Source: Chloroflexota bacterium
GTDB taxonomy: Bacteria > Chloroflexota > Dehalococcoidia > Lucifugimonadales > SAR202-VII-2
Length of the DNA stretch: 64,000 bases
Direction of reading: 5' to 3'
Assembly (NCBI GenBank): GCA_003228115.1
Contig: QEVV01000001.1
Coordinates: forward strand, 467,834-531,833
The notes beneath the pieces are model-generated. The model was not told where the DNA came from. It saw only the letters and a list, made by a program, of their open reading frames with translations, and did not search any database. The translations under genes and the position numbers were made by a program. Shown here piece by piece: positions 3,166 through 55,278 of this stretch; position 1 is the stretch's first letter; each line of letters starts with the position of its first letter.

Positions 3166-3166
3166 A

Positions 3167-15378: not shown

Positions 15379-15396
15379 GCTATCTACATGCAGCCG

Positions 15397-16731: not shown

Positions 16732-18000
16732 CTATCTGGGAGCCTGCAGTACTTCGTCCCTCTGGAAGGTGTCGATGATTTCGACGCCAGTCTTGGTGAC
16801 CACGACCATGTTCTCCAGCCTGGCCCCACCGACCCTCACCTCTCCTTCCCGGCTCTCAATGGCCAAGCACATGCCCTCTTGGAATTCTTGGGGGTACTTG
16901 AGTGACCACTGTCGGTTCACGATCGGGTGGTCGTAACCAGTCATGCCGCCCAGCCCGATACCGTGACCAATTTCGCTGGCCAGAATCTCGTGCTCGCTGG
17001 CGTATCCCCATTTTGTCGAAGGGGGGAAGTGCTTAGCCGCAGCGTCTGTTGACGCACCGGGCTTGATTTCACTGATCACGTTATCGATTCGGTCCACTAC
17101 CTGCTTGTACCAGTCCTTCTGTTGATCCGAAGGCTTCTTCCCAATGGTCAGCGTGCGGTAGGTGCAGCTTCCGTAGCCCATGTACGTGAATCCGCAGACG
17201 GAGCCGTACATGATGTCGCCGGTCTGGAGGAGACGACCGGTGCTGGAGAAGCCACGGTCGAATGTAATGGGACCGCTGCGCCAACCTCCGGGGTGAGCGA
17301 ACTCAGCGCCCAGCTCGTAGCCGGTTGAGGCGACAATGGTGCCTAGGTCCGTGTCCCGCATTCCGGGGCGGGCAGTTTCCCAGACCTTGTACCAAACGCC
17401 ATCGCAGATGGCGGCGATCATTTTCAAGCAGTTGATCTCATCTTCATTCTTAATCATGCGGGCTTCCAGCAAAAGCGGCTGGGAGGGCACGATGTTGGTT
17501 ACCCCAGCCTCAGCCAGAGCAGCAAGGCCAAAGCCGTCTACGCCGCCAACAGCGATCTTCTCGCCGAGGACGCCCTTGTCCTTTAGAACCTGCGCTATCT
17601 CCTCAGCGAACTGTTTGGCCTCCCATTGCGTGGCATCAATGCCAGGCGACAGGTTGAGCCAGGAGTGGGCTGCTCTGAATTCCGGGATCCAGGGTGCCTG
17701 GTCCGGCATCTGGGCGTACCAACCTGAATGCTCCCACATGATGGAAGGCTGCTCAGCGAAGAACAGCACGTACCGGGACAGTCCCATGGGAAACCCAATA
17801 AGACCGGTCAGGTAGCGGAGGTTCTGGGGAACCCCCTCAAGAATCACGGCCACGCCGTGCTTCTTCATAATCTCGCGAGCCCGGCCCTCCCGGTACTTGC
17901 GCATACGATCCACATTGAGCCGCTCCTGCCAGTCTGCCGTCGCTTGCCCGTAGGTAAGCCGCCCGGTATCCACCACCTTTACGCTAGGTCCAAAAGCCAT
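16732..18000 (-). CDS. M24-fold hydrolase, copy 2
   Basis: Same length (422 aa) and motifs as copy 1. Confidence 0.85.
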   Translation of the reverse strand: MAFGPSVKVVDTGRLTYGQATADWQERLNVDRMRKYREGRAREIMKKHGVAVILEGVPQNLRYLTGLIGFPMGLSRYVLFFAEQPSIMWEHSGWYAQMPDQAPWIPEFRAAHSWLNLSPGIDATQWEAKQFAEEIAQVLKDKGVLGEKIAVGGVDGFGLAALAEAGVTNIVPSQPLLLEARMIKNEDEINCLKMIAAICDGVWYKVWETARPGMRDTDLGTIVASTGYELGAEFAHPGGWRSGPITFDRGFSSTGRLLQTGDIMYGSVCGFTYMGYGSCTYRTLTIGKKPSDQQKDWYKQVVDRIDNVISEIKPGASTDAAAKHFPPSTKWGYASEHEILASEIGHGIGLGGMTGYDHPIVNRQWSLKYPQEFQEGMCLAIESREGEVRVGGARLENMVVVTKTGVEIIDTFQRDEVLQAPR

Positions 18001-18962: not shown

Positions 18963-19130
18963 CAAGGATCCATGTGTCCGGCCTATTCTCCCCACCTGAA
19001 GAAAGCATTACCAAGAGACTCTTTTATAACGTGGGGCAGTACGCTACAATGCGTGGGGCCATTCAGGAGGGGCGAGAATCGTCGCGCGCCGCTGCCAAGC
19101 CTTATATCGGTTAGAGAAGGAGTGTTGCGT

Positions 19131-21248: not shown

Positions 21249-21278
21249 ATGGCGGGGCTAGCTTAGGGAGGATAAGTT

Positions 21279-30920: not shown

Positions 30921-30922
30921 TA

Positions 30923-33034
30923 CTACCCCTCTATCGCTGAAATACGCGTGTTTTGGTAGCCGTCGATGGTTGCCTTGTAGCCAGGTGGGACAAGTATGAG
31001 TGTATCACGCCGTTGAATAATGGCAGGTCCTTCCAGAGTATGCCCCGCTCGTAGATGGTCGTAGTCGTAGACAACCGCCTCCAACTGACCGTATCGCCGC
31101 AGGTATACAGGCCGGGTGCCCACCTTGGCCAAATCCACACCCTCGTTATTCTTCGCCTCCTCAACCTGGGCGATGGCGGGCTTTTCGGTAGCTTTGACTG
31201 CTTCCATCCGGAAGGTGATCACCTCAAGCGGATGAATTGAACGGCTTGCGCCTTGTCCGAATCTGGCCTCGTACCGTTCCTCAAACTCTTTTCGAATCTG
31301 TCCCATGGTGTCAAAGCTCAACGCCCCTTCATGCCAGGGGATAGTGAACTCGTTGAACTGCCCCTCGTACCGCACCTCCAGCCTGCGAACCAAGAAGATC
31401 TCGTCCGCGCCAATGCCGGAAGCCGCAACGTCGCTGAGCACGCGGGCTTCCAAGTCATTGAAAGCGCCATTGAAAGCGTCGATGAACTCCTGGGTCTCCT
31501 CCACATACAGCGGGTCCGAGTGCTCATAGATGAACTTCACGTCCGACAGGACGCACCCGAGTGCAGAAAAGACAGCACTGGAGTGGGGCACAATCATTTC
31601 CTTGATCCCAAGAGCAGCGCCATACTGCACAACGTGCGCAGGGCTGGCCCCTCCATAGGCGAACAGAGCGAACTCACGAGGGTCATAGCCGCTCTCAACC
31701 GTCACCTTCCGGATCAGATCTGCCATCTTGGCCGTAACGATGTCGTAGATGCCCGCAGCAGCTTCGAGCACGGTCATGTTCAGTGGTCCTGCAACCCGCT
31801 CTTGGATTGCGGCCTCAGCGGCGGCCTTGTCCAGCTTCATGCGGCCGCCGAAAAAGTTGTCAGGGTCAAGAATGCCGAGCACTACTAGGGCGTCGGTAAC
31901 GGTCGGCGCTGTGCCACCCTGGCCATAGCACACCGGACCGGGGGACGCCCCGGCGCTTTGCGGGCCAACCATAAGACGCTGGCCTTCCGTCCAAGCTATG
32001 CTACCCCCGCCAGCCCCGATCCCAACTTCCTTGACTCGGGGGGCACGAACAGGAAGGCCGTGGTCAACGAAGGGCATCTTTTCTTCAGCGGGTTCACCCC
32101 TGTAGATGACGCCGACATCGAAGCTGGTGCCTCCCATGTCTGTAGCCAGGACATTGTCATAGCCAAGAATCTTTCCGAAGTACTGAGCGGCAACGAGCCC
32201 AGCCACCGGTCCGGAGTCGATGATAGAAACGGCCTCACGGCCTATACGGGAAGGAAGACAAGCGCCGCCAGAATTTTTCATCACCTGGAGGGGCCACTTG
32301 AACCCCTGCGCCCCAAGCCGCTCTTGCAAATCGTTGATGTAGGAAGCCAACCGTGGGGCCACGTAGGCGTTCACGATAGCAGTGTTCGCCCGCTCGAATT
32401 CACCTATGACGGGCGCCACCTCCGATGAAAGGCTGACATGGGTACCGTTCCCAATGGACCCAATCGTTTCCTTAATAACGTCTTCGTGGTTGCGGTTTCG
32501 GAAGGACCACATCAGACACACAGCAATGCTGTCGACGCCTTCAGCGAGCAGCTCCTTCACCGCCTGTTCAACATCGGCTCGGTTGATCGGAGCGATGACA
32601 TCCCCTTCGAGGTCAACGCGTTCCCGAATGCCCCGGATTAGGGCTTTGGGCACCAAGGGCTCAGCTCGTTCGGTGTAGATGTAGTCCAAGGTCTGCTCAA
32701 TCGGGACCCCCAGGGTTCGTCCCATCGGGCCTCGAGCGATGATGGTGGTGTCCTCAAAGCCTACAGTTGTAATCAGGCCAACCTTGGCTCCCCTGCGGTT
32801 GATGAGGGCGTTTGTCGCCACCGTGGTGCCGTGGGCGAAACGGGCGGCATCGGCCAGGACGGTCTCAACCTCTGTGTTGAGCAATGCCGCCGCATTTGTT
32901 AGAGCATTCATCACTCCGAGCGCAGGGTTGTCAGGAGTTGACAACGCCTTGTCGAAGATGATTGTGCCCTTGTCGTCCAGAATCACGACATCGGTGAAGG
33001 TGCCACCGGTGTCCACGCCAATGTAATAGGTCAT
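30923..33034 (-). CDS. Hydantoinase/oxoprolinase A subunit (second system)
   Basis: GVDTGGTFTD, HGTTVATN, DSGPVAG, TDMGGTSFDV. Confidence 0.92.
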   Translation of the reverse strand: MTYYIGVDTGGTFTDVVILDDKGTIIFDKALSTPDNPALGVMNALTNAAALLNTEVETVLADAARFAHGTTVATNALINRRGAKVGLITTVGFEDTTIIARGPMGRTLGVPIEQTLDYIYTERAEPLVPKALIRGIRERVDLEGDVIAPINRADVEQAVKELLAEGVDSIAVCLMWSFRNRNHEDVIKETIGSIGNGTHVSLSSEVAPVIGEFERANTAIVNAYVAPRLASYINDLQERLGAQGFKWPLQVMKNSGGACLPSRIGREAVSIIDSGPVAGLVAAQYFGKILGYDNVLATDMGGTSFDVGVIYRGEPAEEKMPFVDHGLPVRAPRVKEVGIGAGGGSIAWTEGQRLMVGPQSAGASPGPVCYGQGGTAPTVTDALVVLGILDPDNFFGGRMKLDKAAAEAAIQERVAGPLNMTVLEAAAGIYDIVTAKMADLIRKVTVESGYDPREFALFAYGGASPAHVVQYGAALGIKEMIVPHSSAVFSALGCVLSDVKFIYEHSDPLYVEETQEFIDAFNGAFNDLEARVLSDVAASGIGADEIFLVRRLEVRYEGQFNEFTIPWHEGALSFDTMGQIRKEFEERYEARFGQGASRSIHPLEVITFRMEAVKATEKPAIAQVEEAKNNEGVDLAKVGTRPVYLRRYGQLEAVVYDYDHLRAGHTLEGPAIIQRRDTLILVPPGYKATIDGYQNTRISAIEG

Positions 33035-38908: not shown

Positions 38909-39179
38909 AAAATCTCTTGCTTCCGCCCTGCTTCAAAGGCCACAGAGCGCCCAAGGTCAGCGCGTACTCTGTAGTTCAAAGGATCGGACCAAAGGGATAT
39001 CAGCTAGTCGAGCCTGGACGGGATTATAATGAGCGTTCAGCAGACTAGCAATAGCAAACACCCATCATTGTGAGACTTGCCAGTAGGTCTTTCTTCATGA
39101 ACACCTGCCTGCCTCCGCTTTCACTTCAGGAAAACTCACCGAAGATGCACCCCTTACCCAACTAGTGCGGAGGAAGCCC

Positions 39180-39998
39180 ATGCCGGAGTTCACTGACCTG
39201 GAAATTGTTGAACAAGGGGAGACCGTTCGGATCAATTGCCCCCGCCTCAGCGCCGAACTAGTGCAGGAATTGCTTGGCGTGGGCTGCCACTCTGTAGCCT
39301 GGGGCCCGGACCAGGTGTCCTTCCTACTGAGCGCTGGCGACCTTGACCGGTTCAAGGCCATCTACGAGGCCGGCGGACACGTAACCCTCAACGTCCCCTT
39401 CCGAGTCATCGCCTATTACGACTACATTTCTCCGTTTGCCTACGTCTCCACCGAGTTAGTTAAGCACGTGGAAGCGGCATTCAACATCTATGTTGAGTGG
39501 CGTGGCTTTGAGTTGCGGCCTCGCTGGTCCCAGTACCCGGATGTCGCCGCCGACCCCGTGCGTTCTCAGGCACGCTGGGCCATGCAAAAGGACACCGTTC
39601 GACGTTGGGGACTGCCCATCGCAGAGGACCGCCCTCCCTTCCGCCTTCGTACTCGCACCGCCCTTATGGCCAGCGAGTACGCCAAGGAAAACGGCCGCTT
39701 TCGAGAGTTCCAGAGGGCCATGTACACCGCCTACTACGTCACGCACGAGGACATTCGTGACCTCTCGGTGATTGCCCGCATCGCAGAGGGCCTGGGCCTC
39801 AACGGCACGGACCTGGTTTCCTCGGTGATGGAGCGCCGATTCGAGCAGAGGATGGAGCAGTGGCGACGCGAGGCGGAAGCAGACCTGGTCTTCGGCGTCC
39901 CCACGTTCAAAGTGGGCACAACGATCATCTGGGGGCGAGAAGCCTTAGAGGATCTATCACAGGCGTTAGAAGCAGCAGGCGCACAGCAACGGACATAG
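39180..39998 (+). CDS. DsbA/FrnE/HCCA-isomerase-like thioredoxin-fold protein with an N-terminal extension
   Basis: YYDYISPFAY, VFGVPTF, IWGRE. Confidence 0.78.
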   Translation: MPEFTDLEIVEQGETVRINCPRLSAELVQELLGVGCHSVAWGPDQVSFLLSAGDLDRFKAIYEAGGHVTLNVPFRVIAYYDYISPFAYVSTELVKHVEAAFNIYVEWRGFELRPRWSQYPDVAADPVRSQARWAMQKDTVRRWGLPIAEDRPPFRLRTRTALMASEYAKENGRFREFQRAMYTAYYVTHEDIRDLSVIARIAEGLGLNGTDLVSSVMERRFEQRMEQWRREAEADLVFGVPTFKVGTTIIWGREALEDLSQALEAAGAQQRT

Positions 39999-40018
39999 AC
40001 CCCCAGGACAACAGTGCC

Positions 40019-40855
40019 TCAGGCGTCGATGGTCTGGCCGCCATCTACTGCCAGTGCATGCCCCGTGACGAACGAGGCCTCATCAGAAGCCAGGAACAAC
40101 ATGCCATAGGCAATCTCTTCAGGGTTGGCCAGGCGCTGAAGACAGCGGTTACGGCTAGCTGAGGCCTGAAGAGCCGCTTGGCCTTCCTCGGCACTCTTGC
40201 CTTCCGTCAGGTTTCGCAGCAATCGGGGCGTAGCCGTGCCTCCAGGGCAAACGCAGTTCACCCGGATCCCCATTTGACCGTAATCAATAGCCATACTGCG
40301 GGTCAGTAGCACAACGCCACCCTTGGAAGCAGAGTAAGCAGCGTAGTCGTTGGTTCCCAATAGACCATGAGTCGAAGCGGTGTTCACGATGCTCCCTTTG
40401 CCTTGGGCCATCATGTGAGGTAGGGCAGCCTTAGAGCAAAGAAACATCGAAGTCAGGTTGATGTTGATGAGGCGTTTGAACTCTTCCTCGGTCAATTGAT
40501 CGACGCGCCCCCGTATGCCCGTACCCGCGTTGTTCAGAAGAATGTCCAGGCCTCCAAATCGCTCGAGGGCCAGCGCAACCATGCCTTGGCAGCTTTCGGC
40601 AGATGTGACGTCTGCCTGGAGAAAGACGGCGTCGCCCCCCTCTGACTGGATCAAAGCGTCTATGCGAGGAGTAATCGATTCAGCCAAGTCTACGCAAACC
40701 AGCTTGGCCCCCTCGCGAGCAAACAAACGCGCCGCGGCCCGCCCGATGCCGCTGTTGGCTCCGGTGATGATGGCCACCTTGCCAGCCAGCCGGCCTCGGC
40801 CAGAGCCCATCATGGGGTGTTCATCAGTGGTGGGGGAGGACGCTGCAGATGTCAC
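40019..40855 (-). CDS. SDR array copy 6
   Basis: DEHPMMGSGRGR, TGANSGIG, NNAG, YSASK; GTG start with AAGGAG. Confidence 0.92.
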   Translation of the reverse strand: MTSAASSPTTDEHPMMGSGRGRLAGKVAIITGANSGIGRAAARLFAREGAKLVCVDLAESITPRIDALIQSEGGDAVFLQADVTSAESCQGMVALALERFGGLDILLNNAGTGIRGRVDQLTEEEFKRLININLTSMFLCSKAALPHMMAQGKGSIVNTASTHGLLGTNDYAAYSASKGGVVLLTRSMAIDYGQMGIRVNCVCPGGTATPRLLRNLTEGKSAEEGQAALQASASRNRCLQRLANPEEIAYGMLFLASDEASFVTGHALAVDGGQTIDA

Positions 40856-40889
40856 GATTACTCCTTTTCGCGCGAATGCCTCGGAGAAC

Positions 40890-41708
40890 CTACGCTTGAA
40901 TCGTCTGTCCGCCATCCAGGGCTAGGGCGTGACCGGTAACAAACGACGCTTCATCAGAGGCGAGGAAAAGCATACCGTAGGCAATTTCCTCAGGCATGGC
41001 CGCTCGCTGCAAGCAGCGGTTCTTCTTGGCAATTTCCTCAATGGGAACGCCCCGCCGAGCGATGTTCCCCAGTAGCAGCGGCGTGGCAGTCACACCGGGG
41101 CAAACGCAGTTCACACGTATCCCCATCGGACCGTAGTCGATTGCCATGCTTCGGGTCAGAAGAATCACACCAGCCTTCGAAGAGCAGTAGGCGGCGTTGT
41201 CGTTGGTTGCCAGGATTCCGTAGGTAGAGGCCGTGTTGATGATGCTCCCCTTGCCCTGCGCCATCATATGAGGCAGCACAGCCTTGGAGCCCAGAAACAC
41301 GGAGGTCAAGTTGACGTCCAAAAGGCCCTTCCAGTCTTCCTCAGAAAGGACGTCCACTCGCCCTCGGGCCGTTTTTCCCGCGTTGTTGAGGAGAATGTCC
41401 AGGCCCCCAAACCGCTCCAGGGCCAGCGCTACCATGCCCTGACAACTCTCGGATGAGGTCACGTCGGCCTGGAAGAAGACTGCCTCGCCACCCTCGCTCC
41501 GAATCAATGCGTCGATGCGCGGGGCGACCACGTCAGCCATGTCCACACAGACGATCTTCGCACCCTCGCGGGCAAAGAGTCGGGCAGCCGCCCGGCCAAT
41601 ACCACTGTTGGCCCCCGTAATGACGGCGACCTTGCCTTCCAAGCGGCCGCGGCCAGGGCCCATCATGGGGTGTTCGTCAGTACTTGTTGAGGACGCCTGG
41701 GAGGTCAT
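40890..41708 (-). CDS. SDR array copy 5
   Basis: DEHPMMGPGRGR, TGANSGIG, YCSSK. Confidence 0.92.
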   Translation of the reverse strand: MTSQASSTSTDEHPMMGPGRGRLEGKVAVITGANSGIGRAAARLFAREGAKIVCVDMADVVAPRIDALIRSEGGEAVFFQADVTSSESCQGMVALALERFGGLDILLNNAGKTARGRVDVLSEEDWKGLLDVNLTSVFLGSKAVLPHMMAQGKGSIINTASTYGILATNDNAAYCSSKAGVILLTRSMAIDYGPMGIRVNCVCPGVTATPLLLGNIARRGVPIEEIAKKNRCLQRAAMPEEIAYGMLFLASDEASFVTGHALALDGGQTIQA

Positions 41709-41738
41709 GAATGAACTCTTCGCAGCAGCGCCAAACGC

Positions 41739-42575
41739 CTAGGCGTCAATGGTCTGCCCACCGTCCACAGCCAGCGCGTGCCCAGTAACGAACGAGGCTT
41801 CGTCTGAGGCCAAGAAGAGCATGCCGTAGGCAATTTCCTCGGGTCTGGCTAAACGCAGTAGGCATCGGTTGATGCCTGCTGCGGCCTGGATGGAAGCCTC
41901 TGCATCCTCGGGGCTTTTGCCCTGCGTTAGGTTGCGCAGGAGCCTTGGCGTCGCCGTAGCGCCGGGGCAGACACAGTTCACTCGGATGCCCATAGGGCCG
42001 TAGTCGATAGCCATGCTTCGGGTCAACAGCACGACGCCGCCCTTGGAAGCGCAGTATGCCGAATAGCTCTCAGTCGCCAGCAGCCCGAAGGTAGACGCGG
42101 TGTTGATGATGCTGCCGCGGCCTTGCGCCATCATATGGGGCAGCGCCGCCTTGGAGCCCAGGAAGACCGAACTCAGGTTGATATCGAGGAGGCGCTTCCA
42201 GTCTGCCTCGTCGAGCTGGTCGACCCGACCCCGTATGCCTGTGCCAGCGTTGTTGAGGAGAATGTCCAGGCCCCCGAAACTCTCCAGCGCCTGGGCCACC
42301 ATGCCCTGGCAGCTCTCGGCAGACGTAACGTCGGCTTGGAAGAAAACGGCCTCGCCGCCATCGCTTTGAATGAGAGCATCAATCCGGGGAGTGATAACCT
42401 CCACGAGATCCACACAAACGACCTTGGCGCCCTCCCGAGCAAACAGCCTGGCCGTGGCGCGCCCAATCCCACTATTGGCCCCCGTGATGATGGCAACTTT
42501 ACCTTCCAAACGGCCCCTGCCTGGACCAAGTCCGGGATGCTCGTCAATGCCGGGTGAAGATGTTGTCGATGTCAT
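41739..42575 (-). CDS. SDR array copy 4
   Basis: DEHPGLGPGRGR, TGANSGIG, YCASK. Confidence 0.92.
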   Translation of the reverse strand: MTSTTSSPGIDEHPGLGPGRGRLEGKVAIITGANSGIGRATARLFAREGAKVVCVDLVEVITPRIDALIQSDGGEAVFFQADVTSAESCQGMVAQALESFGGLDILLNNAGTGIRGRVDQLDEADWKRLLDINLSSVFLGSKAALPHMMAQGRGSIINTASTFGLLATESYSAYCASKGGVVLLTRSMAIDYGPMGIRVNCVCPGATATPRLLRNLTQGKSPEDAEASIQAAAGINRCLLRLARPEEIAYGMLFLASDEASFVTGHALAVDGGQTIDA

Positions 42576-42607
42576 TTAGATCCTCCGCCGCAGGAATACG
42601 TTGCCCC

Positions 42608-43444
42608 TTAAGCCTTGATTGTCTGCCCACCATCCACACACAGCGCGTGGCCAGTCACGAAAGAAGCTTCGTCAGAAGCCAGGAACAACATGCCGTAGGC
42701 GATCTCTTCGGGGTTGGCCAATCGCTTGAGCGCGTGATTGCTATCGGCCACAGCTTTGAGTGCGGCCACCCCCTCCTCTGGACTCTTGCCCCGCAAAACG
42801 CCCCCAATCATCCGATCCGTTGCGGTGGCGCCGGGGCATAGGCAATTGACCCTGATACCCATCGGCCCATAGTCGATAGCCATGCTCCGGGTCAGTAGAA
42901 TTACTGCCGCCTTTGACGCGCAATAGGCAGCGTACCTGCTGAACGCCAGCAGACCGAACGTAGACGCCGTGTTAATTATGCTCCCACGGCCCTTCTCCAT
43001 CATGTGCGGCAGTGCCGCCTTCGAGCCCAGGAAAGCAGAGTTGAGGTTGATGTCGATAATACGGTTCCAGTCTTCGAGAGAGGTCTCGTCGACCCGGCCG
43101 AAGACACCTGTGCCGGCGTTGTTCACCAAGACATCCAAGCCACCAAAGCGTTCCAAGGCCAGTGCAACCATCGCCTGGCAGCTTTCGGAGGATGTCACAT
43201 CTGCTTGAAAGAAAACGGCATCGCCGCCCTCGCTCTCAATCAATACGTCGATGCGGGGGGCAACGACCTCCACCAAGTCCACACAGACGACTTTGGCCCC
43301 TTCCCGGGCGAACTGGCGGGCTGCCGCCCGGCCAATGCCACTGTTGGCCCCGGTAATGACGGCGACCTTCCCCTCAAGCCGACCCCTGCCGGGGCCCATC
43401 ATGGGGTGCTCATCGATGTTGGGAGAAGAAGCCGCCGATGTCAT
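42608..43444 (-). CDS. SDR array copy 3
   Basis: DEHPMMGPGRGR, TGANSGIG, YCASK. Confidence 0.92.
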   Translation of the reverse strand: MTSAASSPNIDEHPMMGPGRGRLEGKVAVITGANSGIGRAAARQFAREGAKVVCVDLVEVVAPRIDVLIESEGGDAVFFQADVTSSESCQAMVALALERFGGLDVLVNNAGTGVFGRVDETSLEDWNRIIDINLNSAFLGSKAALPHMMEKGRGSIINTASTFGLLAFSRYAAYCASKAAVILLTRSMAIDYGPMGIRVNCLCPGATATDRMIGGVLRGKSPEEGVAALKAVADSNHALKRLANPEEIAYGMLFLASDEASFVTGHALCVDGGQTIKA

Positions 43445-43477
43445 CTCGACCCTCTCAGCACAATTTTGCTCGCGGGC

Positions 43478-44308
43478 CTAAGCGTCTGTCGTTTGACCGC
43501 CATCTACCGCCAAAGCGTGCCCGGTGACGAAGGACGCCTCATCAGAGGCGAGGAAGAGCATGCCGTAGGCAATCTCCTCTGGGTGCGCCAGTCGTTGGAT
43601 TGCCCTGTTGATATCCCCGGCCGCCTTCACAGACGCGGCAGCCTCTTCAGGGCTCTTACCCTCCGTCAGAATCCTGAGCAACCGCGGCGTAGCTGTTCCT
43701 CCGGGGCAGATGCAATTGACCCTGATTCCCATGGTGCCGTAATCGATGGCCATGCTCCTGGTTAAGAGCACAACACCACCCTTGGACGCGCTATACACCG
43801 CGTAACTGGCCGTGCCCAGCAAACCAAAGGTGGAAGCTGTATTGACGATGCTTCCCTTCCCCTGGGCCATCATGTGCGGCAGCGCAGCCTTGGACCCCAA
43901 GAACACGCCCGTAAGGTTGAGGTTTACGATCTTCTTCCAGTCTTCTTCTGATAGTTGGTCCACCCGGCCCCACACCCCGGCCCCTGCGTTGTTGACCAAA
44001 ATGTCCAAATCGCCGTAGCGCTCCAGGGCCGTATTCACCATTCCCTGGCAACTCTCAAACGACGTAACGTCGCCCTTGTAAAAAACGGCATCGCCACCTT
44101 CCCCTTGAATCAGGGCGTCGACCCGAGGGGACACGTCCTCCACGAGATCGACAGCGACCACCTTGGCGCCTTCGCGGGCGAAGAGCCTGGCCGTAGCCCG
44201 ACCGATGCCGCTATTGGCTCCAGTTATTGCAGCGACTTTACCTTCCAAACGGCCCCTGCCCGGCCCCATCATGGGGTGTTCATCATTACTTGGTGACGCT
44301 GATGTCAT
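43478..44308 (-). CDS. SDR array copy 2
   Basis: DEHPMMGPGRGR, TGANSGIG, YSASK. Confidence 0.92.
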   Translation of the reverse strand: MTSASPSNDEHPMMGPGRGRLEGKVAAITGANSGIGRATARLFAREGAKVVAVDLVEDVSPRVDALIQGEGGDAVFYKGDVTSFESCQGMVNTALERYGDLDILVNNAGAGVWGRVDQLSEEDWKKIVNLNLTGVFLGSKAALPHMMAQGKGSIVNTASTFGLLGTASYAVYSASKGGVVLLTRSMAIDYGTMGIRVNCICPGGTATPRLLRILTEGKSPEEAAASVKAAGDINRAIQRLAHPEEIAYGMLFLASDEASFVTGHALAVDGGQTTDA

Positions 44309-44359
44309 GGTTCCTCCCTATTGTTCTTTGTTTGAATTGCCGCTCTGACCCTAGCAAGT

Positions 44360-45178
44360 CTAGGCGTCGATGGTCTGGCCGCCGTCTACCGCCAGAGCGT
44401 GCCCCGTCACAAAGGAGGCCTCGTCGGAAGCTAGGAACAGCATGCCGTACGCAATCTCCTCCGGTCGTCCCAAACGAAGCACGGCCCGGTTGATCTTTGC
44501 TGCTTCGGCTATGGCTGCCTCAGGATCGGGCTGTGAGTCGAAGAAGCGAAGGAGCCTTGGCGTAGCGGTGGCTCCGGGGCAAACACAGTTAACCCGAATA
44601 CCCATCACACCGTAGTCAATGGCCATACTGCGGGTCAGCAGGACCACCCCGCCCTTGGAAGCGCAGTAGGCCGCGTAGTCCTCAGAAGCGAGCAAACCGA
44701 AGGTGGAGGCCGTGTTGATGATGCTGCCTCGCCCCTTTTCCATCATGTGGGGCAGGGCCGCCTGGCTACCGTTGAAAACGCTGTTCAGGTTCGTGTCCAG
44801 CACCAGCTGCCACTGATCGAGGGACAATTGGTCCACCCGGCCTCTGATGCCCGTGCCCGCGTTGTTGACCAGGATGTGCAGGTCACCGTAGTTGTCGAGT
44901 GCGGTGGATACCATGCGGTCGCAGTCTTTGCGGTCGGTTACGTTTACGTTGACGAACGTGCACTCCCCACCTTGGCTCTTGATGAGATCATCTATGCGAG
45001 GCTGGATGTCCTCAACGAAGTCGACTGCCACCACCTTCGCACCCTCTCTGGCGAACAAATCGGCGGTTGCCCTTCCAATACCGCTATTGGCGCCGGTCAC
45101 AATAGCGACCTTGCCCTCCAACCTGCCTCGACCGGGTCCAAGGCCTGGATGCTCCTGCGCCGTCGATTGTGTTGTCAC
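44360..45178 (-). CDS. SDR array copy 1
   Basis: QEHPGLGPGRGR, TGANSGIG, YCASK. Confidence 0.92.
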   Translation of the reverse strand: MTTQSTAQEHPGLGPGRGRLEGKVAIVTGANSGIGRATADLFAREGAKVVAVDFVEDIQPRIDDLIKSQGGECTFVNVNVTDRKDCDRMVSTALDNYGDLHILVNNAGTGIRGRVDQLSLDQWQLVLDTNLNSVFNGSQAALPHMMEKGRGSIINTASTFGLLASEDYAAYCASKGGVVLLTRSMAIDYGVMGIRVNCVCPGATATPRLLRFFDSQPDPEAAIAEAAKINRAVLRLGRPEEIAYGMLFLASDEASFVTGHALAVDGGQTIDA

Positions 45179-45292
45179 AACGTTGCTCCTTACTCAATCT
45201 ATCTGTTTGGAGTTATTGCAGTTGGGCCTGCCCCGACAACGATACGCCCTACTGAGGCGGAGCAGGCCCAAGTTTTTTGCGAATAGTCTTTG

Positions 45293-46417
45293 CTATGCGC
45301 CGTTGATGCCGTACAACGCCCTGGGGTTGTCAATAAGGATCTTGTTCTTGACCTCTTCTGAAATGTCAGGACGTCGCTTCAAGTCGGGCACAATGCCATC
45401 TTCTCTCGACTGATCCTGGTGACCGTAGTCCGAACCGATGATGATGTTGTCCTCGCCAATGAAGTTCAGGAGGTAGCCGATGTCTTCATCGACCTCCGTG
45501 GCCACATAGAGGCGATAGTCGCGGAAGAGCTGCGGCCCCCACCACTTGCCCCAGTCGGGCCCGGTGGCGGTTACCTGGAACCCAGCCTTGGAGGAGCGCC
45601 TAAGCAGGTGCATGACGTAGGGCACCCAGGAGGACGCCGCCTCAACAAAGGCGAAGCGCAACTCTGGGAACTTCTCCGGGATCTTGTTGGCGACGATATC
45701 CCGAAAGGCAAACAGGGGCATGACCCGAACGTGAGGGAAGACAGAGCTATAGCTGATATCGATGAGCTTGGTCAGGGCGGGAACGCCGCCCCCGGTGTGG
45801 AAGCAGATGGGCAAACCCGCCTTCTGAGCAGCTTCATAGATGGGAAAGAAGTAAGGCTCAGCCACCGATCGAGAGCCCTCAATACCCCGGAAGAGCAAGC
45901 CCACAGCCCCGTTGGCCTTGACGAAATCAATCTCTTCTATCGTCGCCTCGACCGAGCGCAAGGGAACGGGGGCCACCCAACGGATGCGGTTCTCTCCCTT
46001 GGCCCAAACATCCGCCATGTAGCGGTTGTAGGCTCGGCATAGGGCGATCTCGAGTTCCACGTCGTCAGTCAAGTACATGATGAACATCGTGGGGTAGACC
46101 ACCTCGACACCACAGTCCCGCTCGTCCATCGCCTTGAGACGCCCTGGCACGTCCATAATGCCCCGTACGGCAGAGGGAATGTCCGTTCGAGACTCTTCCT
46201 TGATACCTCCAGGGACATGCAGGCCGAAACTGCCCTTGCCCTTGGGCCGTGGGTAGATTTCCCCGTCTATGAGCCAGAACGCGTTGAACTCGCCGTACCA
46301 CGTGTCGGCGGGAGCAATGAGCCGAACAGGACGCCGCTCATACCACTCCTTGTCCATGTACTCCCAGATGCCCGGGTGCTCGATGATATGCGTATCAGCG
46401 TCAACAATGCTCGCCAT
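45293..46417 (-). CDS. Amidohydrolase_2 family protein (ACMSD/LigW-like hydratase/decarboxylase)
   Basis: VDADTH, YPT, CFHTG, VEAASSW, GSDYGH. Confidence 0.88.
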   Translation of the reverse strand: MASIVDADTHIIEHPGIWEYMDKEWYERRPVRLIAPADTWYGEFNAFWLIDGEIYPRPKGKGSFGLHVPGGIKEESRTDIPSAVRGIMDVPGRLKAMDERDCGVEVVYPTMFIMYLTDDVELEIALCRAYNRYMADVWAKGENRIRWVAPVPLRSVEATIEEIDFVKANGAVGLLFRGIEGSRSVAEPYFFPIYEAAQKAGLPICFHTGGGVPALTKLIDISYSSVFPHVRVMPLFAFRDIVANKIPEKFPELRFAFVEAASSWVPYVMHLLRRSSKAGFQVTATGPDWGKWWGPQLFRDYRLYVATEVDEDIGYLLNFIGEDNIIIGSDYGHQDQSREDGIVPDLKRRPDISEEVKNKILIDNPRALYGINGA

Positions 46418-46534
46418 GCTGGATACCTCCCTCGTTGTCTTCGTCTTTCCTTGTCATTGGTGGCGAGTCAGACCCGCCAAGTGGACAGCTATGTTATGGC
46501 AGCGCAGCCGGGGACTGTCAAGGGAACGATTGGC

Positions 46535-47440
46535 TCACCTCACAACCAGAGCCGCCGTGCCGCCGACAATCATTGCAATGGCCGTCAACTTCAAGGCCAG
46601 TATCCGTGGCGTGAGGAGTTCGTAGACCAAGCGGGGCGTTAGCCGACTTCCAACTACTACGAAGATAAAAACGAACAGCGGCCGTGTGGCGTTCAGTGCC
46701 GAGGCCCCCGACACCGGACCCGCCACAAACGAGGCAAACAATAGGTAAGACCCTACCAATGCCATTAATGTGTCCGCCGCGAAGAGCACCAGGTTTGGAG
46801 GACGGTTCCGCACGATGGCCCAGGCCTCCCTCACAGAGTCTCGGCTGGTCGACACAGACAAGATAGCCACGCCGACGGCGAAGAAGTTGATGGTGAACAC
46901 CTGAACGGTGGACATCTCTGAAAGAGCGTCCTTGCCAAGGAAGTTCGATGCCCCCACTGCGAGGCTGGACAGCGTGAGCAGGAAAAAGGACGACCCCAGG
47001 AAACCGCCCAGCGCTCCCGGAGTGCGGCGGGCCGACAAAAGTACGGCCCCGGCGACAATCACGACGATGGCCACCCAATCCAGTACTCCGACCTGCTCGT
47101 TTAGAAACAGGGCCGCTAGTATTGCGACGAAGATCGGGTATGTCTGGGTAACTGGTAGGGCTCTGGAGACCTCCTCCTTTCGCAGCACCCAGAAGAGGAT
47201 CGCCAGGGACAAGCCACGGATGAGTCCGGATGCCACGGCCGCGCCAATGGCCCGTAGCGAATAGGACGAGTAGGACGGATCAGCGATAAAGAAAGGGATA
47301 CAAATCAGGACGCCAAAGACGCCCATGATGAACAAAATGGACCGGGTATTCCGGGACAGATGGTCGACTATGTATTTGTCAAGAATGCTGACGAGGCCAA
47401 ATATGGCCGCGCTAAGCAGCGCAAGAATGGCCCAATCCAT
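46535..47440 (-). CDS. EamA/DMT family transporter
   Basis: About 10 hydrophobic segments; EEVSRA..YPIFVAILAALFLNE. Confidence 0.85.
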   Translation of the reverse strand: MDWAILALLSAAIFGLVSILDKYIVDHLSRNTRSILFIMGVFGVLICIPFFIADPSYSSYSLRAIGAAVASGLIRGLSLAILFWVLRKEEVSRALPVTQTYPIFVAILAALFLNEQVGVLDWVAIVVIVAGAVLLSARRTPGALGGFLGSSFFLLTLSSLAVGASNFLGKDALSEMSTVQVFTINFFAVGVAILSVSTSRDSVREAWAIVRNRPPNLVLFAADTLMALVGSYLLFASFVAGPVSGASALNATRPLFVFIFVVVGSRLTPRLVYELLTPRILALKLTAIAMIVGGTAALVVR

Positions 47441-47449
47441 AGGGAACCT

Positions 47450-48628
47450 CTAATCCACTGGGTCAGGCAGCCATCCCCAGGGACGCGGGCCCCAGTCGGG
47501 GGTGATGACCTCGCCCCGCTTTACGGTGACGAAGGGGATCATGGCCTGTTCCACCGTCTGAGACTGGCCGTCTGAGTCGATCACTTTCCACTTGCCTTGC
47601 TGAATATCTAGGACGGTGACATCTCCCTGGTGTCCGGGCTTCAGCGTCCCCAGGCGGTCATCGGCGTTCATTGCCCTAGCGGGCTTGATTGTAGCCATCT
47701 CTATGGTCTGCTCCAACGTAAAGCCCAAGGCCATAAAGCGGGTGAGGGTCTCCACCATGCTATGCACGACTTCTCGGCCGGGGATGGTCAGGTCCGTGCT
47801 GGCGCAATCGGGGGCCATGCCTTGGTCCAGTAATCGCTGGCCCACATCGAAGCTAAAGTTGAAGCGTCCATGGCCCGTATCAAAGAGGACACCACGTTCC
47901 ACCGCCGCCTTCACCTGTGGGTAAAGCTTGCCGTTGGCATCCAGCACCCCACCGTGGTGTGAGGTGAAGAGGTGGGTGAGTATGTCCCCCTCGTCGAGGA
48001 TGTCCAACAACTCCGTCAATACTGACTTCTGCCCCACCTTGGCGTGCGGATCACCGATGTGCACCATCAACGGCAATCCCGTCTGACGCCCAATGTCCTT
48101 GGCGATGCGGGCAAGGTCCATGCCCATATTTTCCAAGGCCGGATTGACCATCCGCACCTTCAAGCCGTGGATCTGCCCCTTGTACTGGGCTGCAATCTTG
48201 ATGGCCTCGTCAGCATCTATGTCTTCGGGGCCGCGAATCTCCGGCAAGCTGACCAAGCCGTGCCGGCCGACGTGCATGAAGCAGACAACCTCTGTCTTGC
48301 AATAAGGCAACACGTATTTGGGAAAGCCGCCAAAGTTGAAGGGACCGGCGCTGCCGGCATCCACGACCGTCGTCACTCCCGCTCGGACACCGGCAGAATC
48401 TGGGTTGAGGCCTCTTGGGTTCACCGCCTCATAAACGTGGACGTGGAAGTCTATCAGGCCCGGTACAACAGTCTTCCCCGGGACACGAATGCTGCGCAGC
48501 GCTTCCGTCTCCGGGATGTCAGCCGCCACACTCGCCACAAGGCCGTCAGTAATAGCGACATCGAGGTCGGCATTGAGTCCCAGAGCAGGGTCCAAAACCC
48601 GCCCACCTTTGATGAGCAGATCGTACAT
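47450..48628 (-). CDS. Dihydroorotase-like amidohydrolase/deacetylase
   Basis: PGLIDFHVH, GVTTVVDAGSAG, GLKVR, MVHIG, THLF, DTGHG, STD. Confidence 0.87.
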   Translation of the reverse strand: MYDLLIKGGRVLDPALGLNADLDVAITDGLVASVAADIPETEALRSIRVPGKTVVPGLIDFHVHVYEAVNPRGLNPDSAGVRAGVTTVVDAGSAGPFNFGGFPKYVLPYCKTEVVCFMHVGRHGLVSLPEIRGPEDIDADEAIKIAAQYKGQIHGLKVRMVNPALENMGMDLARIAKDIGRQTGLPLMVHIGDPHAKVGQKSVLTELLDILDEGDILTHLFTSHHGGVLDANGKLYPQVKAAVERGVLFDTGHGRFNFSFDVGQRLLDQGMAPDCASTDLTIPGREVVHSMVETLTRFMALGFTLEQTIEMATIKPARAMNADDRLGTLKPGHQGDVTVLDIQQGKWKVIDSDGQSQTVEQAMIPFVTVKRGEVITPDWGPRPWGWLPDPVD

Positions 48629-48875
48629 GGCGGTCTCCTTGTAGCTTCGCTGAGCCGCCACATTGTGGCATGGGCCGTATCACGAGGCAAGGAAGCCGAT
48701 CTCTCGGCCTCCGTTGGTCAACAGATCACCTGCAAACTAGCCGTTTTCGCTGCGAACACCAACGCTTTTCACCATCGCTAGGCACCCTTTATACGACTAT
48801 CGTCCATTCTTGACAGATGCCGTTGGTGAAGCCTAAAGTTGGGCACCACTCATTCGAGGTCCATCGAGGTCCATC

Positions 48876-49112
48876 ATGGATTCCAACCAACTCAAGCTCA
48901 CGGTAGAGGCTATGCCTGACGGAGGCTTCCGAGCCACCAGTTCAGATGTCCCCGCGCTTGATGTCCAGAATGCAACCATAGCGGGAGCCATGGAAGCGGC
49001 CCAGGTGACTGTGCGGGCAATTGCCCACGAAGGCGGGAGCGAGTTGTCGCCGCTATTGAAGGCCGCTAGAACCTCCCTGCTAACACTCAAAGTCAGCATC
49101 GTAGGTGCCTGA
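48876..49112 (+). CDS. Small DUF1902/HicB-like protein
   Basis: GGFRATSSDVPALDVQNATI resembles HicB/DUF1902 N-termini. Confidence 0.55.
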   Translation: MDSNQLKLTVEAMPDGGFRATSSDVPALDVQNATIAGAMEAAQVTVRAIAHEGGSELSPLLKAARTSLLTLKVSIVGA

Positions 49113-49187
49113 CTTCTGGCACTTCCGCAGCTTCGGTAATCCTTCCGTCCCCCTTGTCCCTTACTTCCCTTTGTTCGGAGTGCGCCC

Positions 49188-49976
49188 ATGGACTTGCTAC
49201 TCGGCGACCGCATCGCCATCGTGACCGGCGGAGCGTCAAACATAGGCCGTCAGGTTGCTTTGACCCTAGCTCAGGAGGGCGCCAACGTCGCCATCTTGGA
49301 TCTCGATGAGGCCGGAGCGCAGCGGGTTGCTCAGGAAGTGAAGGCCAGTGGGGGTCAAGCTACCGGCTATGCGACCAATATTGCCGACCCAGCTATGGTC
49401 AAAGAATCCGTTGACCGCGTGGTTCACGACCTAGGGAAGATCGACATCCTGGCTAACGTAGCTGGCTGGATGTTCGACGAACTTTTCCTAGATGAGACCC
49501 TTGAGAAGCAGGAGAAGGTCGTGGGAGTGAACCTTTGGGGTCCCATGAACATGATCCGCGCCGTGCTGCCTCACATGGTGACCAGCGAGTATGGCCGGGT
49601 AATCTCCGTGGCTTCAGACGCTGGGCGGATGGGGGAGTATAAAGAGGCAGTTTACTCAGCCTGCAAGGCCGGCGTTATCGCTTTGTCAAAAGCGTTGGCA
49701 AGAGAGGTCGGACGTTACAACATCACCCTCAACTGCGTGTGTCCGGGCCTCACAATCCCGGAGGCGCCGGAAACGATCAGTGCAGGCAGTTTCTGGCATG
49801 AGAACCTCGACTTCTGGACCGATGAGCGCCAACAAAAAGCGACCAGGGCCTACCCGCTGCGCCGCCTCGGCAAGCCAGACGATGTCGCCAATATGGTGGC
49901 ATGGCTTGCCTCCGACCGCTGCTCTTACGTCACAGGCCAAACGGTCAGCGTGAGTGGTGGCTACACCATGATGTAG
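49188..49976 (+). CDS. SDR oxidoreductase (BadH-like)
   Basis: TGGASNIG, ASDAGRMG, YSACKAG, TVSVSGGYTM. Confidence 0.88.
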   Translation: MDLLLGDRIAIVTGGASNIGRQVALTLAQEGANVAILDLDEAGAQRVAQEVKASGGQATGYATNIADPAMVKESVDRVVHDLGKIDILANVAGWMFDELFLDETLEKQEKVVGVNLWGPMNMIRAVLPHMVTSEYGRVISVASDAGRMGEYKEAVYSACKAGVIALSKALAREVGRYNITLNCVCPGLTIPEAPETISAGSFWHENLDFWTDERQQKATRAYPLRRLGKPDDVANMVAWLASDRCSYVTGQTVSVSGGYTMM

Positions 49977-50085: not shown

Positions 50086-51627
50086 ATGCCTTTCAAGCAG
50101 CAGACGTTTGCCCTTGGCCTCACGGCCCTTCTGGCCTTGCTGGTGGCTTGCTCTAATAGCTCGGAACCCGCCGCTACTCCTACGAGTTCTCCTGAGCCAG
50201 AGCCCTCCGCAACTTCAACGTCCTCGCCTGCGGTGAGGCCAGCGACCCCGCCATCGCCCGTGCCCACCCTTGACCCAAGAATCCCGGAGCCGCCCGCACT
50301 GGAGGGCCCTGGCCAGCTTATGCTTACCGCTCTCCAGGAAGTCATCTTCAGTTCCCAGACTGCCGCAATTGGGGAGATCCGGGAAAGTGGCGATCCCACC
50401 TATATTCCCGCACTGGTGGAACTGCTTCGGTTCAATCCCTTCTATATGCAGGACGTAACGGACAGCCTCCTTTACGCTCTGGACACGTTGTCTGCTCCCA
50501 TCGATGGAATCACCTTTTCCACGAGATTCACCTGGAGCGCCTGGGTCAAGTGGCTTGCCGAAAATTCGATTGATGCTCCACAGGGCTTCGCAGCCTGGAA
50601 AGGCTATCTGTATACGTTAGTAGACCCAGCTATGGGCGCGTTCCTCTACGAAGGTGTGCCGACCAGGATCGACATTGGTGAAGTGGTGTGGGGGGGCGTA
50701 GCCAAGGACGGGATTCCCGACCTCAGGGACCCTCCTGTCGTTTCGCCTGAGGCGGCCACCTACCTGAATCCTGACGACCGGGTATTTGGCATTTCCATAA
50801 ATGGGGAGCACCGGGCCTACCCGCACCGCATCATGAACCCCCACGAAATGGCCAACGACGTCCTTGGAGGAGTGCCCATCGCGTTAGCCTACTGAACACT
50901 CTGTGGATCGGGAATCGTGTATTCCCGCACAGTCAACGGACAGGTCACCGAGTTCGGCACCTCCGGCTTTCTCTACCGCAGTAACAAGCTCATGTACGAC
51001 CGGGCCACAAATACGCTGTGGCGTCAGTTTATAGGCGAGCCGGTGGTAGGGCCGCTGGCTTTCAGCGGCATCCAGCTAAAATTGTTTCCCGTGACCGTTA
51101 CGACCTGGGAGCAGTGGCTAGAGGAGCACCCAAACACGACTGTTCTGGATATCCAGACCGGAATATACACACCAGACAGGTACCTGCCTGAGTCGGACCC
51201 CTCTTCGATCTACCACCTTTATCGTGAGGACGCTGGCACCATGTTCCCCGTTCCGCTGGAAAGCGACCTGCTGGCCACCAAGGCCGAGGTATTCGGCTTG
51301 CTGCTTGGGGGAGAGGCAAGGGCATACGCCTTGGACAGCCTTACCGAGACTCTCGTGGTCAACGACACCTTGGGTGGCGGGGACGTGGTGATCATTACCG
51401 ACCCGAAGGCCGGAGCCGCGCGGGCGTATGAGAGCGGCGGTCACACCTTTTCAGTGGGCGAAGGCAGCATGATCGTCGACGAAAACGGGACCAGTTGGGT
51501 AGCCCGTGACGATGCATTGGTGCAGGACGACGACCCCTCCCAAGAGTTGCCGCGGCTGGACGCCCGTAACGCCTACTGGTTCGGCTGGTCCTCCAACCAC
51601 CCAGACACCTCTGTCTACGAGGACTAG
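50086..51627 (+). CDS. DUF3179 domain lipoprotein, selenoprotein (Sec at TGA 50893-50895)
   Basis: Lipobox LLVAC; WGGVAKDGIP, RAYP..HEMAND..IALAY-TGA-TLCGSG continues in frame to FGTSGFLYRSNKLMYDRAT and YWFGW...HPDT. Confidence 0.88.
50901..50932 (+). promoter_or_regulatory. Bacterial SECIS element
   Basis: CTGTG-GAT-CGGGAAT-[CGTGT]-ATTCCCG-CACAG directly 3' of the UGA. Confidence 0.8.
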
Positions 51628-54053: not shown

Positions 54054-55184
54054 CTATCCAACCGCAGGCGCAGCATTGCGGAGCCGCGAGGCGGCCCCAA
54101 ACCCCGAGTGGCCGGCAAGCCATTCATCCAGTTCGGCCCGATCCCCAGGCGGGTCCGGGGGCTTAGGAACATTGCCGCCGTTGTAGACCCGAACGGCATT
54201 GCCCCAGAGCACCTTTTCGCGTGTCTCCTGAGGGACGTGCTGTAGCTCCTCAGAGACGACGACGTGGGACTCCGGCCATGTGCTGGCTGGGTGGGGGTAG
54301 TCGTGGGACCACATGAAGTTGTCTTGCCCGTATGCTTCCAGGAGGTACGAGCCAACCGCATCGCTGATGAAGGTGCTGCTGACTTGGCGATGGAAATACT
54401 CGCTAGGAAGCATAGGCAGCGGCTGGCGGCTCACCGTATAGTAGTCCAACTCTTGTAGCCAGAAGGGAATCCAGCCAACGCCGATCTCCGCGACCACGAT
54501 CAGCAAGCGCGGGTACCTTTCCAGCACGCCTGACCCGATGATGTGGAGCAAGGAATTCATCGCGTCAAGCTTATGACCATTGACCGAATGAGCTTGAGGG
54601 AGCTTGGGATTCACGATGACCGGCCTGGCTCGCGCGTTGATGTGCATACTCAACGGCATCTCCATGTCTTGTGCCGCTGCCCAGAACTCCTCGTAGTGGT
54701 CTGAGTTGTAGGGGAGCTCATCGGGCGCTGCGATCCAGACGGCAGCTCCTCGCAAGCCCCCCTTCTTGAAACGCTCCATCTCCTTGATTGCGTGGCCAAC
54801 ATTCCACAGTGACACCACGCCCAGGCCCCAGAAGCGCTCAGGCGCAACGCTGCAGAAATCCATGAGCCAGTCGTTGTAGACCTGGAAGCAAGCCTCTTCC
54901 AACTCCCAGTCGTCAGGGAATCGCACATCCAACGTACCCAGCGTGGGATACAAAACCTCAGCACTAACGCCGTCGAAGGCCATGTCTTTCAGGCGCTCAT
55001 GCGGATCCCAACCTCCGGCCCGGAGATGCTGGCTGGTTTCGAAGAGCCTGGCCGTGATCCGGGGCGCACGGTCACGAAGACTCTGCGGAAGGTTCCTATC
55101 CCAGAGGTCAGGGGGCTCCGCCATATGAGAGTCCGCCGAGACGAGAAGGTTGTTAGAGGGGGTGGTTGGAACCGGTTCCTGCAT
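54054..55184 (-). CDS. Amidohydrolase_2 family protein
   Basis: SADSH, EVLYPT, SMHI, AEIGVGWIP, WSHDYPHPASTWP. Confidence 0.88.
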   Translation of the reverse strand: MQEPVPTTPSNNLLVSADSHMAEPPDLWDRNLPQSLRDRAPRITARLFETSQHLRAGGWDPHERLKDMAFDGVSAEVLYPTLGTLDVRFPDDWELEEACFQVYNDWLMDFCSVAPERFWGLGVVSLWNVGHAIKEMERFKKGGLRGAAVWIAAPDELPYNSDHYEEFWAAAQDMEMPLSMHINARARPVIVNPKLPQAHSVNGHKLDAMNSLLHIIGSGVLERYPRLLIVVAEIGVGWIPFWLQELDYYTVSRQPLPMLPSEYFHRQVSSTFISDAVGSYLLEAYGQDNFMWSHDYPHPASTWPESHVVVSEELQHVPQETREKVLWGNAVRVYNGGNVPKPPDPPGDRAELDEWLAGHSGFGAASRLRNAAPAVG

Positions 55185-55278
55185 GGCGTTCACCTCGCTG
55201 ACCATCCATTGGAACCGAGAGCCTAGCAAGCGCAGCACATGGAGTCAATTGGGTGCGCACAGGCCAGTGGTCGACGCT

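Follow-up and report, generated by a model that had tools for sequence, protein, structure and literature searches.

Six tandem short-chain dehydrogenase/reductase paralogs, conserved as orthologues in a marine Dehalococcoidia genus, lie beside a putative dinuclear oxygenase gene

Expansions of the short-chain dehydrogenases/reductases (SDRs; COG1028 / Sfam 1639) have been described in SAR202 bacteria. In the portions of these papers drawn on here, Landry 2017 (PMC5395668) reports 60 SDRs in five SAR202 genomes and proposes that in SAR202 these paralogs supply ketones, made from alcohols, for Baeyer-Villiger oxygenation, Lim 2023 (PMC10444878) reports 44 COG1028 genes and proposes parallel non-phosphorylative sugar pathways, including COG3618, for cultured SAR202, and Saw 2020 argues that chirality is a driver of enolase paralogs, short-chain dehydrogenases being unmentioned in those portions. 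Here we describe a locus in a 64,000-nucleotide stretch of contig QEVV01000001.1 (the window, meaning the whole stretch analyzed), in which seven co-oriented genes occupy positions 40019-46417 of the minus strand: a gene of the PF04909 family, which we call gene A, followed by six SDR genes, S1 to S6. The runs holding the stretch are seawater or marine metagenomes, and the window's genome, a 2.78-Mb assembly of 18 contigs, contains 34 luciferase-like monooxygenase (PF00296) hits, 37 Rieske hits (mostly on open reading frames (ORFs) of 410-530 residues) and 31 SDR matches at E <= 1e-30. These counts and the marine habitat match the published descriptions of SAR202, to which the genome may belong.

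The locus shares with the described expansions its marine Dehalococcoidia host, a small genome with many SDR paralogs and large monooxygenase/Rieske families, and the idea, as expressed in those portions of the literature, that many related dehydrogenases serve many related organic substrates. However, the published data, to the same extent, are genome-wide counts, whereas the window has a monophyletic, strictly tandem six-gene array with 1:1 orthologues. The word "tandem" is absent from the portions of Landry 2017 and Saw 2020 considered and occurs once in that of Lim 2023, for tandem flaB (archaellin) copies. Literature searches on SDRs, paralog expansion and amidohydrolases of SAR202 and on bacterial tandem SDRs turned up no account of the array; Supplementary Table 3 of Lim 2023 (paralogs per COG) may list such genes. 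SDR paralog expansion in SAR202 is already known, and what is new is its tandem, monophyletic and orthologue-conserved form, with a neighbor resembling the amidohydrolase-related dinuclear oxygenases (AROs).

Related SDR paralogs of one organism can split stereoisomers between them, as do the R- and S-hydroxypropyl-CoM dehydrogenases (R- and S-HPCDH), paired SDRs for the two enantiomers of one substrate; S-HPCDH is also a Foldseek match of S4. However, those are two enzymes with a known substrate and form no tandem monophyletic array, whereas the window has six. Gene A was characterized from Pfam, PDB sequence matches, motif frequencies, an AF2 model and Foldseek, and the seven genes are as follows:

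45293-46417, minus strand: gene A, PF04909 (Amidohydro_2), 374 residues, ARO-like metal-ligand set
44360-45178, minus strand: S1, SDR, 272 residues, GTG start; loops TGIR / FGLLASEDY; earliest-branching copy
43478-44308, minus strand: S2, SDR, 276 residues; loops AGVW / FGLLGTASY
42608-43444, minus strand: S3, SDR, 278 residues; loops TGVF / FGLLAFSRY
41739-42575, minus strand: S4, SDR, 278 residues; loops TGIR / FGLLATESY; shortest branch, nearest the consensus; the copy modelled with AF2
40890-41708, minus strand: S5, SDR, 272 residues; loops KTAR / YGILATNDN; deletion of 6 residues in the lid; without Tyr171
40019-40855, minus strand: S6, SDR, 278 residues from GTG 40855; loops TGIR / HGLLGTNDY

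The ORF list and Pfam confirm what an earlier note on this DNA had read from the sequence, namely six consecutive, co-oriented SDRs of 272-278 residues with 30-51 bp spacers behind a PF04909 gene. The spacers from S1 to S6 measure 51, 33, 32, 30 and 34 bp, and the gap between gene A and S1 is 114 bp. The listed S6 ORF begins at ATG 40915, which gives 298 residues and an overlap of 26 nt with S5. An alternative GTG at 40855, with AAAGGAG upstream, yields a protein of 278 residues that aligns to the other copies from residue 1, and we predict this GTG, in correction of the listed ATG, to be the S6 start. A Shine-Dalgarno-like purine-rich stretch is clear in five of the six spacers and weak (GAAGAG) before S5. 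The GC content across the region is unremarkable (0.585-0.600).

The six genes encode classical SDRs as judged by Pfam, cofactor motif, catalytic tetrad and Rossmann fold. All six match adh_short_C2 (E 8e-69 to 1e-65) and adh_short, the latter at 194-204 bits for a cut-off of 26.6. In the alignment, TGANSGIG, NNAG, NTAST, Y174xxxK178 and the 24-residue PEEIAYGMLFLASDEASFVTGHAL are identical in all copies, and both these invariant motifs and the variable strings after NNAG and after the catalytic Ser are present exactly as first quoted. The tetrad N133, S161, Y174 and K178 is invariant in the six copies and in 60/60 subfamily sequences, as is Asp56 at the end of beta2. In SDRs, an acidic residue at this position goes with a preference for NAD rather than NADP, and by this rule Asp56 would point to NAD as the cofactor. 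The AF2 model of S4 (pLDDT 92.5) has seven parallel strands, and Foldseek aligns it with probability 1.00 to many SDR structures, the top matches being NAD(H)-bound secondary-alcohol dehydrogenases and ketoreductases. The nearest solved proteins, at 40-44% identity and TM 0.84-0.86, are BacC, isopiperitenol dehydrogenase, several ketoreductases and S-HPCDH. With BacC dihydroanticapsin 7-dehydrogenase (5itv), isopiperitenol dehydrogenase (7djs) and S-HPCDH (4itu), all NAD(H)-bound, the window proteins have in common the fold, the N-S-Y-K tetrad and a core of about 250 residues, but identity is limited to the range given above and the window proteins add an ordered N-terminal arm. This arm, DEHPxxGPGxGRL, is subfamily-wide and spans residues 9-25 of S1-S6 (for example window 42501-42551 in S4); its E12, H13, P14 and R22 are invariant in 60/60 sequences, and it is modelled as ordered with a pLDDT of about 92. 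NCBIfam returns generic names only, the best equivalog, PRK06138, falling below its cut-off.

The array is a real and old set of six paralogs. Pairwise identity among the copies is 66.5-82.7% for protein and 62.7-72.4% for DNA, and pairwise synonymous difference (pS) reaches 0.68-0.83, which is saturation. Where two copies carry the same residue, they use the same codon in 1198 of 2933 comparisons (0.41), for an expectation of 0.37-0.38 from codon usage alone, so that almost no synonymous signal of common descent remains. The wide divergence at synonymous sites that had been noticed from the sequence is therefore correct. We considered selection for codon divergence as a means to block recombination and discarded it, since codon identity lies slightly above the expectation. 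A permutation test on 447 polymorphic sites detected no gene-conversion tract in any of the 15 pairs (global p >= 0.27), and identical stretches shared by two copies reach 29 nt at most. An assembly repeat, which had been denied from the start, is contradicted by two further lines of evidence: the same six-gene array is found in two congeners, one of them a single-contig 3.09-Mb chromosome, and contigs from an independent study (run X2) cover 39000-41665, 41724-43863 and 44148-46823 in three pieces with zero mismatches. Another contig of that run, joining 42122 to 44854 at an S4-S1 junction, was set aside as a probable assembly chimera, having only 22 letters on one side.

Both congeners (G001 and G002) carry the six SDR genes in identical order as 1:1 orthologues, each having 83-93% identity to its positional counterpart in the window and lower identity to all other copies. 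In a bootstrap tree, the array genes group together as a single clade (100/99) within metagenomic homologues of 60-70% identity, and this monophyly indicates that the six copies arose by duplication in place. Bootstrap support is 100% for five of the six orthologue groups; the S4 group, with its very short branch, forms a single clade in only 16% of the bootstrap trees. S1 is sister to the remaining copies (100/99) and the order of S2-S6 is a polytomy. A quick tree in which branching followed gene order, S1,(S2,(S3,(S4,(S5,S6)))), was abandoned, the careful bootstrap tree keeping only the first position of S1.

Outside the genus, relatives are distant. At E <= 1e-80, the clade is found in 3 of the 41 genomes of the order, which are a sample: the window's genome and the two congeners. 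Among the order genomes searched, one (G033) has a single homologue of 57% identity, and the window's genome has a seventh homologue of 56% outside the array. A contig scan with the six-copy alignment, whose patterns are very specific, gave nothing closer outside the two congeners than SDRs of 38-51% identity. In the metagenome contig scan, only three loci among the matches listed are near relatives (55-60% identity), and their neighbors, again among the matches listed, are NMT1-like binding proteins and not PF04909. On one metagenome contig (L095, 4568-7963), the nearest outgroup SDR (58%) follows three tandem genes for NMT1-like substrate-binding proteins, another tandem paralog set.

The ratio of nonsynonymous to synonymous substitution (dN/dS) is 0.030-0.104 in 14/14 intact orthologue pairs, with dS of about 1-2 for the pairs that include the window's genome, indicating that purifying selection has maintained all six copies since the split from the congeners. 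The copies are distinct genes under selection and not a dosage amplification, which agrees with the earlier note. Two orthologues are frameshifted: S2 of G001 (contig L011, 7296-8168) has +1 nt after codon 121, and S5 of G002 (contig L012, 6712-7569) has +2 nt in a GAG repeat near codon 241. Since the sequence past both frameshifts is still conserved, the breaks are either very recent or assembly/consensus errors.

To locate the differences between copies, we classified the alignment columns of 18 sequences (six groups from three species, all related). Invariant columns number 133; 41 are fixed within every group and different between groups, 42 are nearly so, and 64 vary within groups. Mapped on the S4 model, the fully fixed differences fall mainly in the beta4-alphaE loop (113-115; TGIR, AGVW, TGVF and K/T-TAR), the beta5-alphaF loop (163-173, after Ser161) and the lid (206-243), three elements that line the substrate pocket in the SDR fold. 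Variable columns are enriched in the two loops and the lid (49/61, for 98/217 elsewhere; p 1e-6). As had been claimed, variation is thus concentrated after NNAG, after the catalytic Ser and in the lid. However, the pattern is generic for the subfamily, as outgroup pairs of equal overall divergence share the same regional profile except in the beta5-alphaF loop, where the paralogs differ more from each other (0.61 identity, versus 0.75 in outgroup pairs). The N-terminal arm is somewhat more conserved between paralogs (0.78 versus 0.68). What distinguishes the array is that the two loops beside the active site are near-constant inside orthologue groups and different between them: 13 columns are fixed between groups and 3 variable within, the ratio elsewhere being 70:61, a borderline enrichment (Fisher p 0.059) given 18 related sequences. 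These comparisons support copy-specific pockets kept across species.

The neighbor, gene A, was initially labelled an amidohydrolase. AROs belong to PF04909 and carry the motifs D-x-H near the N-terminus and D-x-P-H-x-D/E near the C-terminus (PMC10811679, PMC13154177, in the parts drawn on here), and in the corresponding part of PMC13154177 these motifs are absent from characterized hydrolases and decarboxylases of the same fold. Gene A matches PF04909 with 93.2 bits (cut-off 26.4; E 3.2e-26), and its AF2 model (pLDDT 88) is a TIM barrel with D8-T9-H10 on strand 4-10, the N-terminal D-x-H. The ligand set consists of D8-T-H10, H207, E259 and D330-Y-G-H333-Q-D335. In the gene A family, D8, H10, H207 and E259 are present in 122/122 members, D-x-G-H-x-D in 113/122 and D-x-P-H-x-D in 5/122. 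The C-terminal motif of gene A thus has the three ligand residues of the published one with Gly in place of Pro, and a strict published motif filter would miss the family. Like the diiron class of Table 1 in PMC13154177 (as far as that table was used), gene A has a hydrophilic Thr inside D-x-H and a non-aromatic Gln between His and the last Asp. In the PDB, the ten best matches by sequence are all AROs or the putative ARO 4dzi (so termed in the same parts of PMC10811679 and PMC13154177), with E-values from 1.6e-18 to 9e-10: in order 8sm9, 8sm8, 8sm6 (SfbO), 8sm7 (Liu et al. 2024), AibH1 and AibH2, 4dzi, PtmU3 and DitZ, followed by ACMSD decarboxylases at 8e-7. Foldseek ranks AROs together with ACMSD-type decarboxylases, their E-values being close, so that the fold alone does not decide. 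With SfbO, AibH1H2, PtmU3 and DitZ gene A shares PF04909, D-x-H, His207, Glu259 and the C-terminal Asp/His/Asp ligands, but it differs from them in the D-x-G-H-x-D of its family and in having no nearby Rieske ferredoxin gene. Judged by its ligand residues and PDB matches, gene A more likely encodes a dinuclear C-H hydroxylase of the ARO type than a hydrolase, and the label "amidohydrolase" probably misnames it. With gene A included, the family has five members in the window's genome at E <= 1e-120. A second, distant PF04909 protein lies at window 54054-55238 (minus strand), with an N-terminal D-S-H and a C-terminal D-Y-P-H-P-A, hence without the last acidic ligand. In another Dehalococcoidia genome, three PF04909 homologues with 24-27% identity to gene A lie within 8 kb of an SDR (L034, 6043-14065).

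Taken together, we favor, with slightly better than even confidence, the following reading: the locus would encode six NAD-dependent classical SDRs of the secondary-alcohol/ketone type with diverged specificities, duplicated in tandem in the ancestor of the genus and kept by purifying selection, gene A being possibly coupled to them. In the ancestor of this marine Dehalococcoidia genus, tandem duplication would have produced six copies on a shared scaffold formed by the cofactor site, the N-S-Y-K tetrad, the N-terminal arm and the C-terminal helix-strand. In the beta4-alphaE loop, the beta5-alphaF loop and the lid, the copies would then have diverged through copy-specific residues that are maintained between species. 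Most likely they act in parallel on a set of related alcohols, oxidizing them or else reducing the corresponding ketones, each copy favoring a single substrate or isomer; alicyclic alcohols or other small secondary alcohols are candidate substrates, and gene A may make the alcohols that the six SDRs oxidize. The data show the gene structure, age, orthology, selection, fold and motifs, the location of the differences and the ligand set of gene A; from them we infer the differences in specificity, the reaction direction, the substrate class and the coupling to gene A. The suggestion that the array is a selected library for stereo- or regio-isomers of one substrate class holds in part: the copies are selectively kept and their pocket loops are copy-specific, but substrates that are isomers of one class remain a plausible idea drawn from the pocket loops.

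Several observations weigh against this reading. The SDRs have no close characterized relative, the best solved structure being 43% identical. If the frameshifts, one per congener, are not assembly errors, the array may tolerate the loss of a single copy. Enrichment in the loops is borderline, and the same regional pattern in outgroup pairs means that the pattern alone is no sign of a selected library. Gene A deviates from the published ARO motif by its Gly, and no Rieske ferredoxin gene was found near it inside the window (37 Rieske matches lie in the genome), while a neighboring Rieske ferredoxin served to find the first 3,307 ARO candidates (PMC10811679, in the part used). Its pairing with the SDRs is seen only in the three congeners: a 68%-identical gene A homologue in another family of the class (G145) has no neighboring SDR of this clade, and the nearest outgroup SDRs have no PF04909 neighbor. 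In favor of the reading, contigs from three metatranscriptome libraries (three studies) match gene A, S1 to S4 and the initial 69 nt of S5 with at least 99% identity, some spanning the S1-S2, S4-S5 and A-S1 junctions, but contigs in RNA libraries cannot prove transcription or a single transcript. Such contigs are absent from S6, from the remainder of S5, from the adjacent DsbA-like gene and from most of the upstream amidohydrolase gene, which is no evidence of silence.

Another explanation could be that the six enzymes carry out successive steps, acting at different hydroxyl/keto positions of one polyol-like or polycyclic molecule or performing oxidation-reduction epimerizations. A single co-oriented cluster with short spacers and a Shine-Dalgarno-like sequence per gene would fit such a pathway, as would copy-specific pocket loops conserved across species. 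We also count in its favor the SDR PtmO8, a PDB match of S4, which inverts a hydroxyl after the action of the ARO PtmU3. However, frameshifts in different copies of the two congeners fit parallel, dispensable branches better than an obligatory series, and we regard this explanation as unlikely.

The six SDRs could also be sugar 1-dehydrogenases oxidizing different aldoses (or 2-keto-3-deoxy sugar acids), with the PF04909 protein hydrolyzing the lactones formed. The "glucose 1-dehydrogenase" subfamily model PRK07231 of NCBIfam scores above its cut-off (S4, 250 versus 215 bits), glucose and aldohexose dehydrogenases are among the fold matches of S4, and Lim 2023 (PMC10444878), in the part used, places COG1028 and COG3618 paralogs in such pathways. 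But PRK07231 is a broad subfamily model, and none of the 17 distinct sequences matching gene A in the PDB at E <= 1e-3 is a lactonase, the top ones all being AROs. Moreover, gene A has D-x-H and the second-site ligands, which according to the same part of PMC13154177 are absent from characterized PF04909 hydrolases, and the 32 window ORFs scanned include no enolase-superfamily dehydratase or aldolase. A sugar pathway is therefore a quite unlikely explanation of the array.

The paralogs might instead co-assemble into heterotetramers whose composition tunes activity, an idea already raised as mixed tetramers. Co-expression is probable from the adjacent gene positions, and alphaF and alphaG-betaG, which form the interfaces of classical SDR tetramers, are 86% and 93% identical between copies. 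However, these segments are equally conserved in unrelated outgroup pairs (0.83 and 0.91; for the invariant C-terminal helix-strand 0.93 versus 0.91) and their conservation is not specific to the array, while alphaE has 5 fixed between-copy differences. As the data point to nothing special at the interfaces, mixed tetramers find no specific support and appear improbable. That the copies are interchangeable and the array is slowly decaying, as the frameshifts in G001 and G002 might suggest, is very improbable in view of the low dN/dS in every intact orthologue pair at dS of up to about 2, the six intact genes in the window and the conserved sequence past both breaks.

Two genes upstream of gene A are of uncertain membership in the unit:

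46535-47440, minus strand: EamA-family transporter, 117 bp upstream of gene A; syntenic in both congeners
47450-48661, minus strand: amidohydrolase/deacetylase-type metallohydrolase, 9 bp upstream of the EamA gene; syntenic in both congeners

The metallohydrolase reaches 369.9 bits with NCBIfam PRK09237, for a cut-off of 371. Syntenic flanks in both congeners comprise gene A (92% identity), the EamA gene (73%), the upstream amidohydrolase (85-86%) and a divergent SDR (85-86%). A promoter and terminator scan of 39000-49300 was uninformative, with 5 promoter-like sites for 3.5 expected and 12 terminator-like sites for 8.6. On the other side of the array, a DsbA-like gene (39165-39998) directly abuts S6 in the window; both congeners have about 5 kb there (L011 about 11730-16580, L012 about 720-5880), including an ORF of about 970 residues. 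Elsewhere in the window, adjacent 422-residue ORFs of the M24 metallopeptidase family (15397-16665 and 16732-18000, minus strand) look like another tandem paralog pair, and two separate hydantoinase/oxoprolinase A+B gene pairs lie within 15 kb (18972-23519, plus strand; 28722-33034, minus strand). DUF3179 (PF11376) is split over the plus-strand ORFs 50086-50895 and 50917-51627, positions 1-64 of the profile ending the first and 74-292 lying in the second, and may be a frameshifted or split gene.

The role of SAR202-type bacteria in the turnover of refractory ocean carbon is credited to expanded enzyme families, and substrates are known for almost none of these paralogs. The array offers a compact natural experiment in this respect, with one ancestor and differences mainly in two short pocket loops and the lid that are conserved across species; six small soluble enzymes should be easily expressed and would test whether paralog expansion is a division of labor over isomers. 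Tentatively, and with a limited chance of being right, the locus could be a "hydroxylate, then oxidize" module for refractory marine organic matter, in which an ARO-type gene A with the Gly variant would produce a mixture of regio- or stereoisomeric alcohols, the genus-specific set of six pocket-diversified SDRs would convert each isomer into its ketone, and the ketones would pass to the many Baeyer-Villiger-type flavin monooxygenases of the genome. If this is true, a Gly-variant ARO subfamily would be abundant in marine Chloroflexota and invisible to the D-x-P-H-x-D/E filter. To judge from gene A, a large branch of the dinuclear-oxygenase superfamily with this Gly variant may still be labelled "amidohydrolase" in marine genomes.

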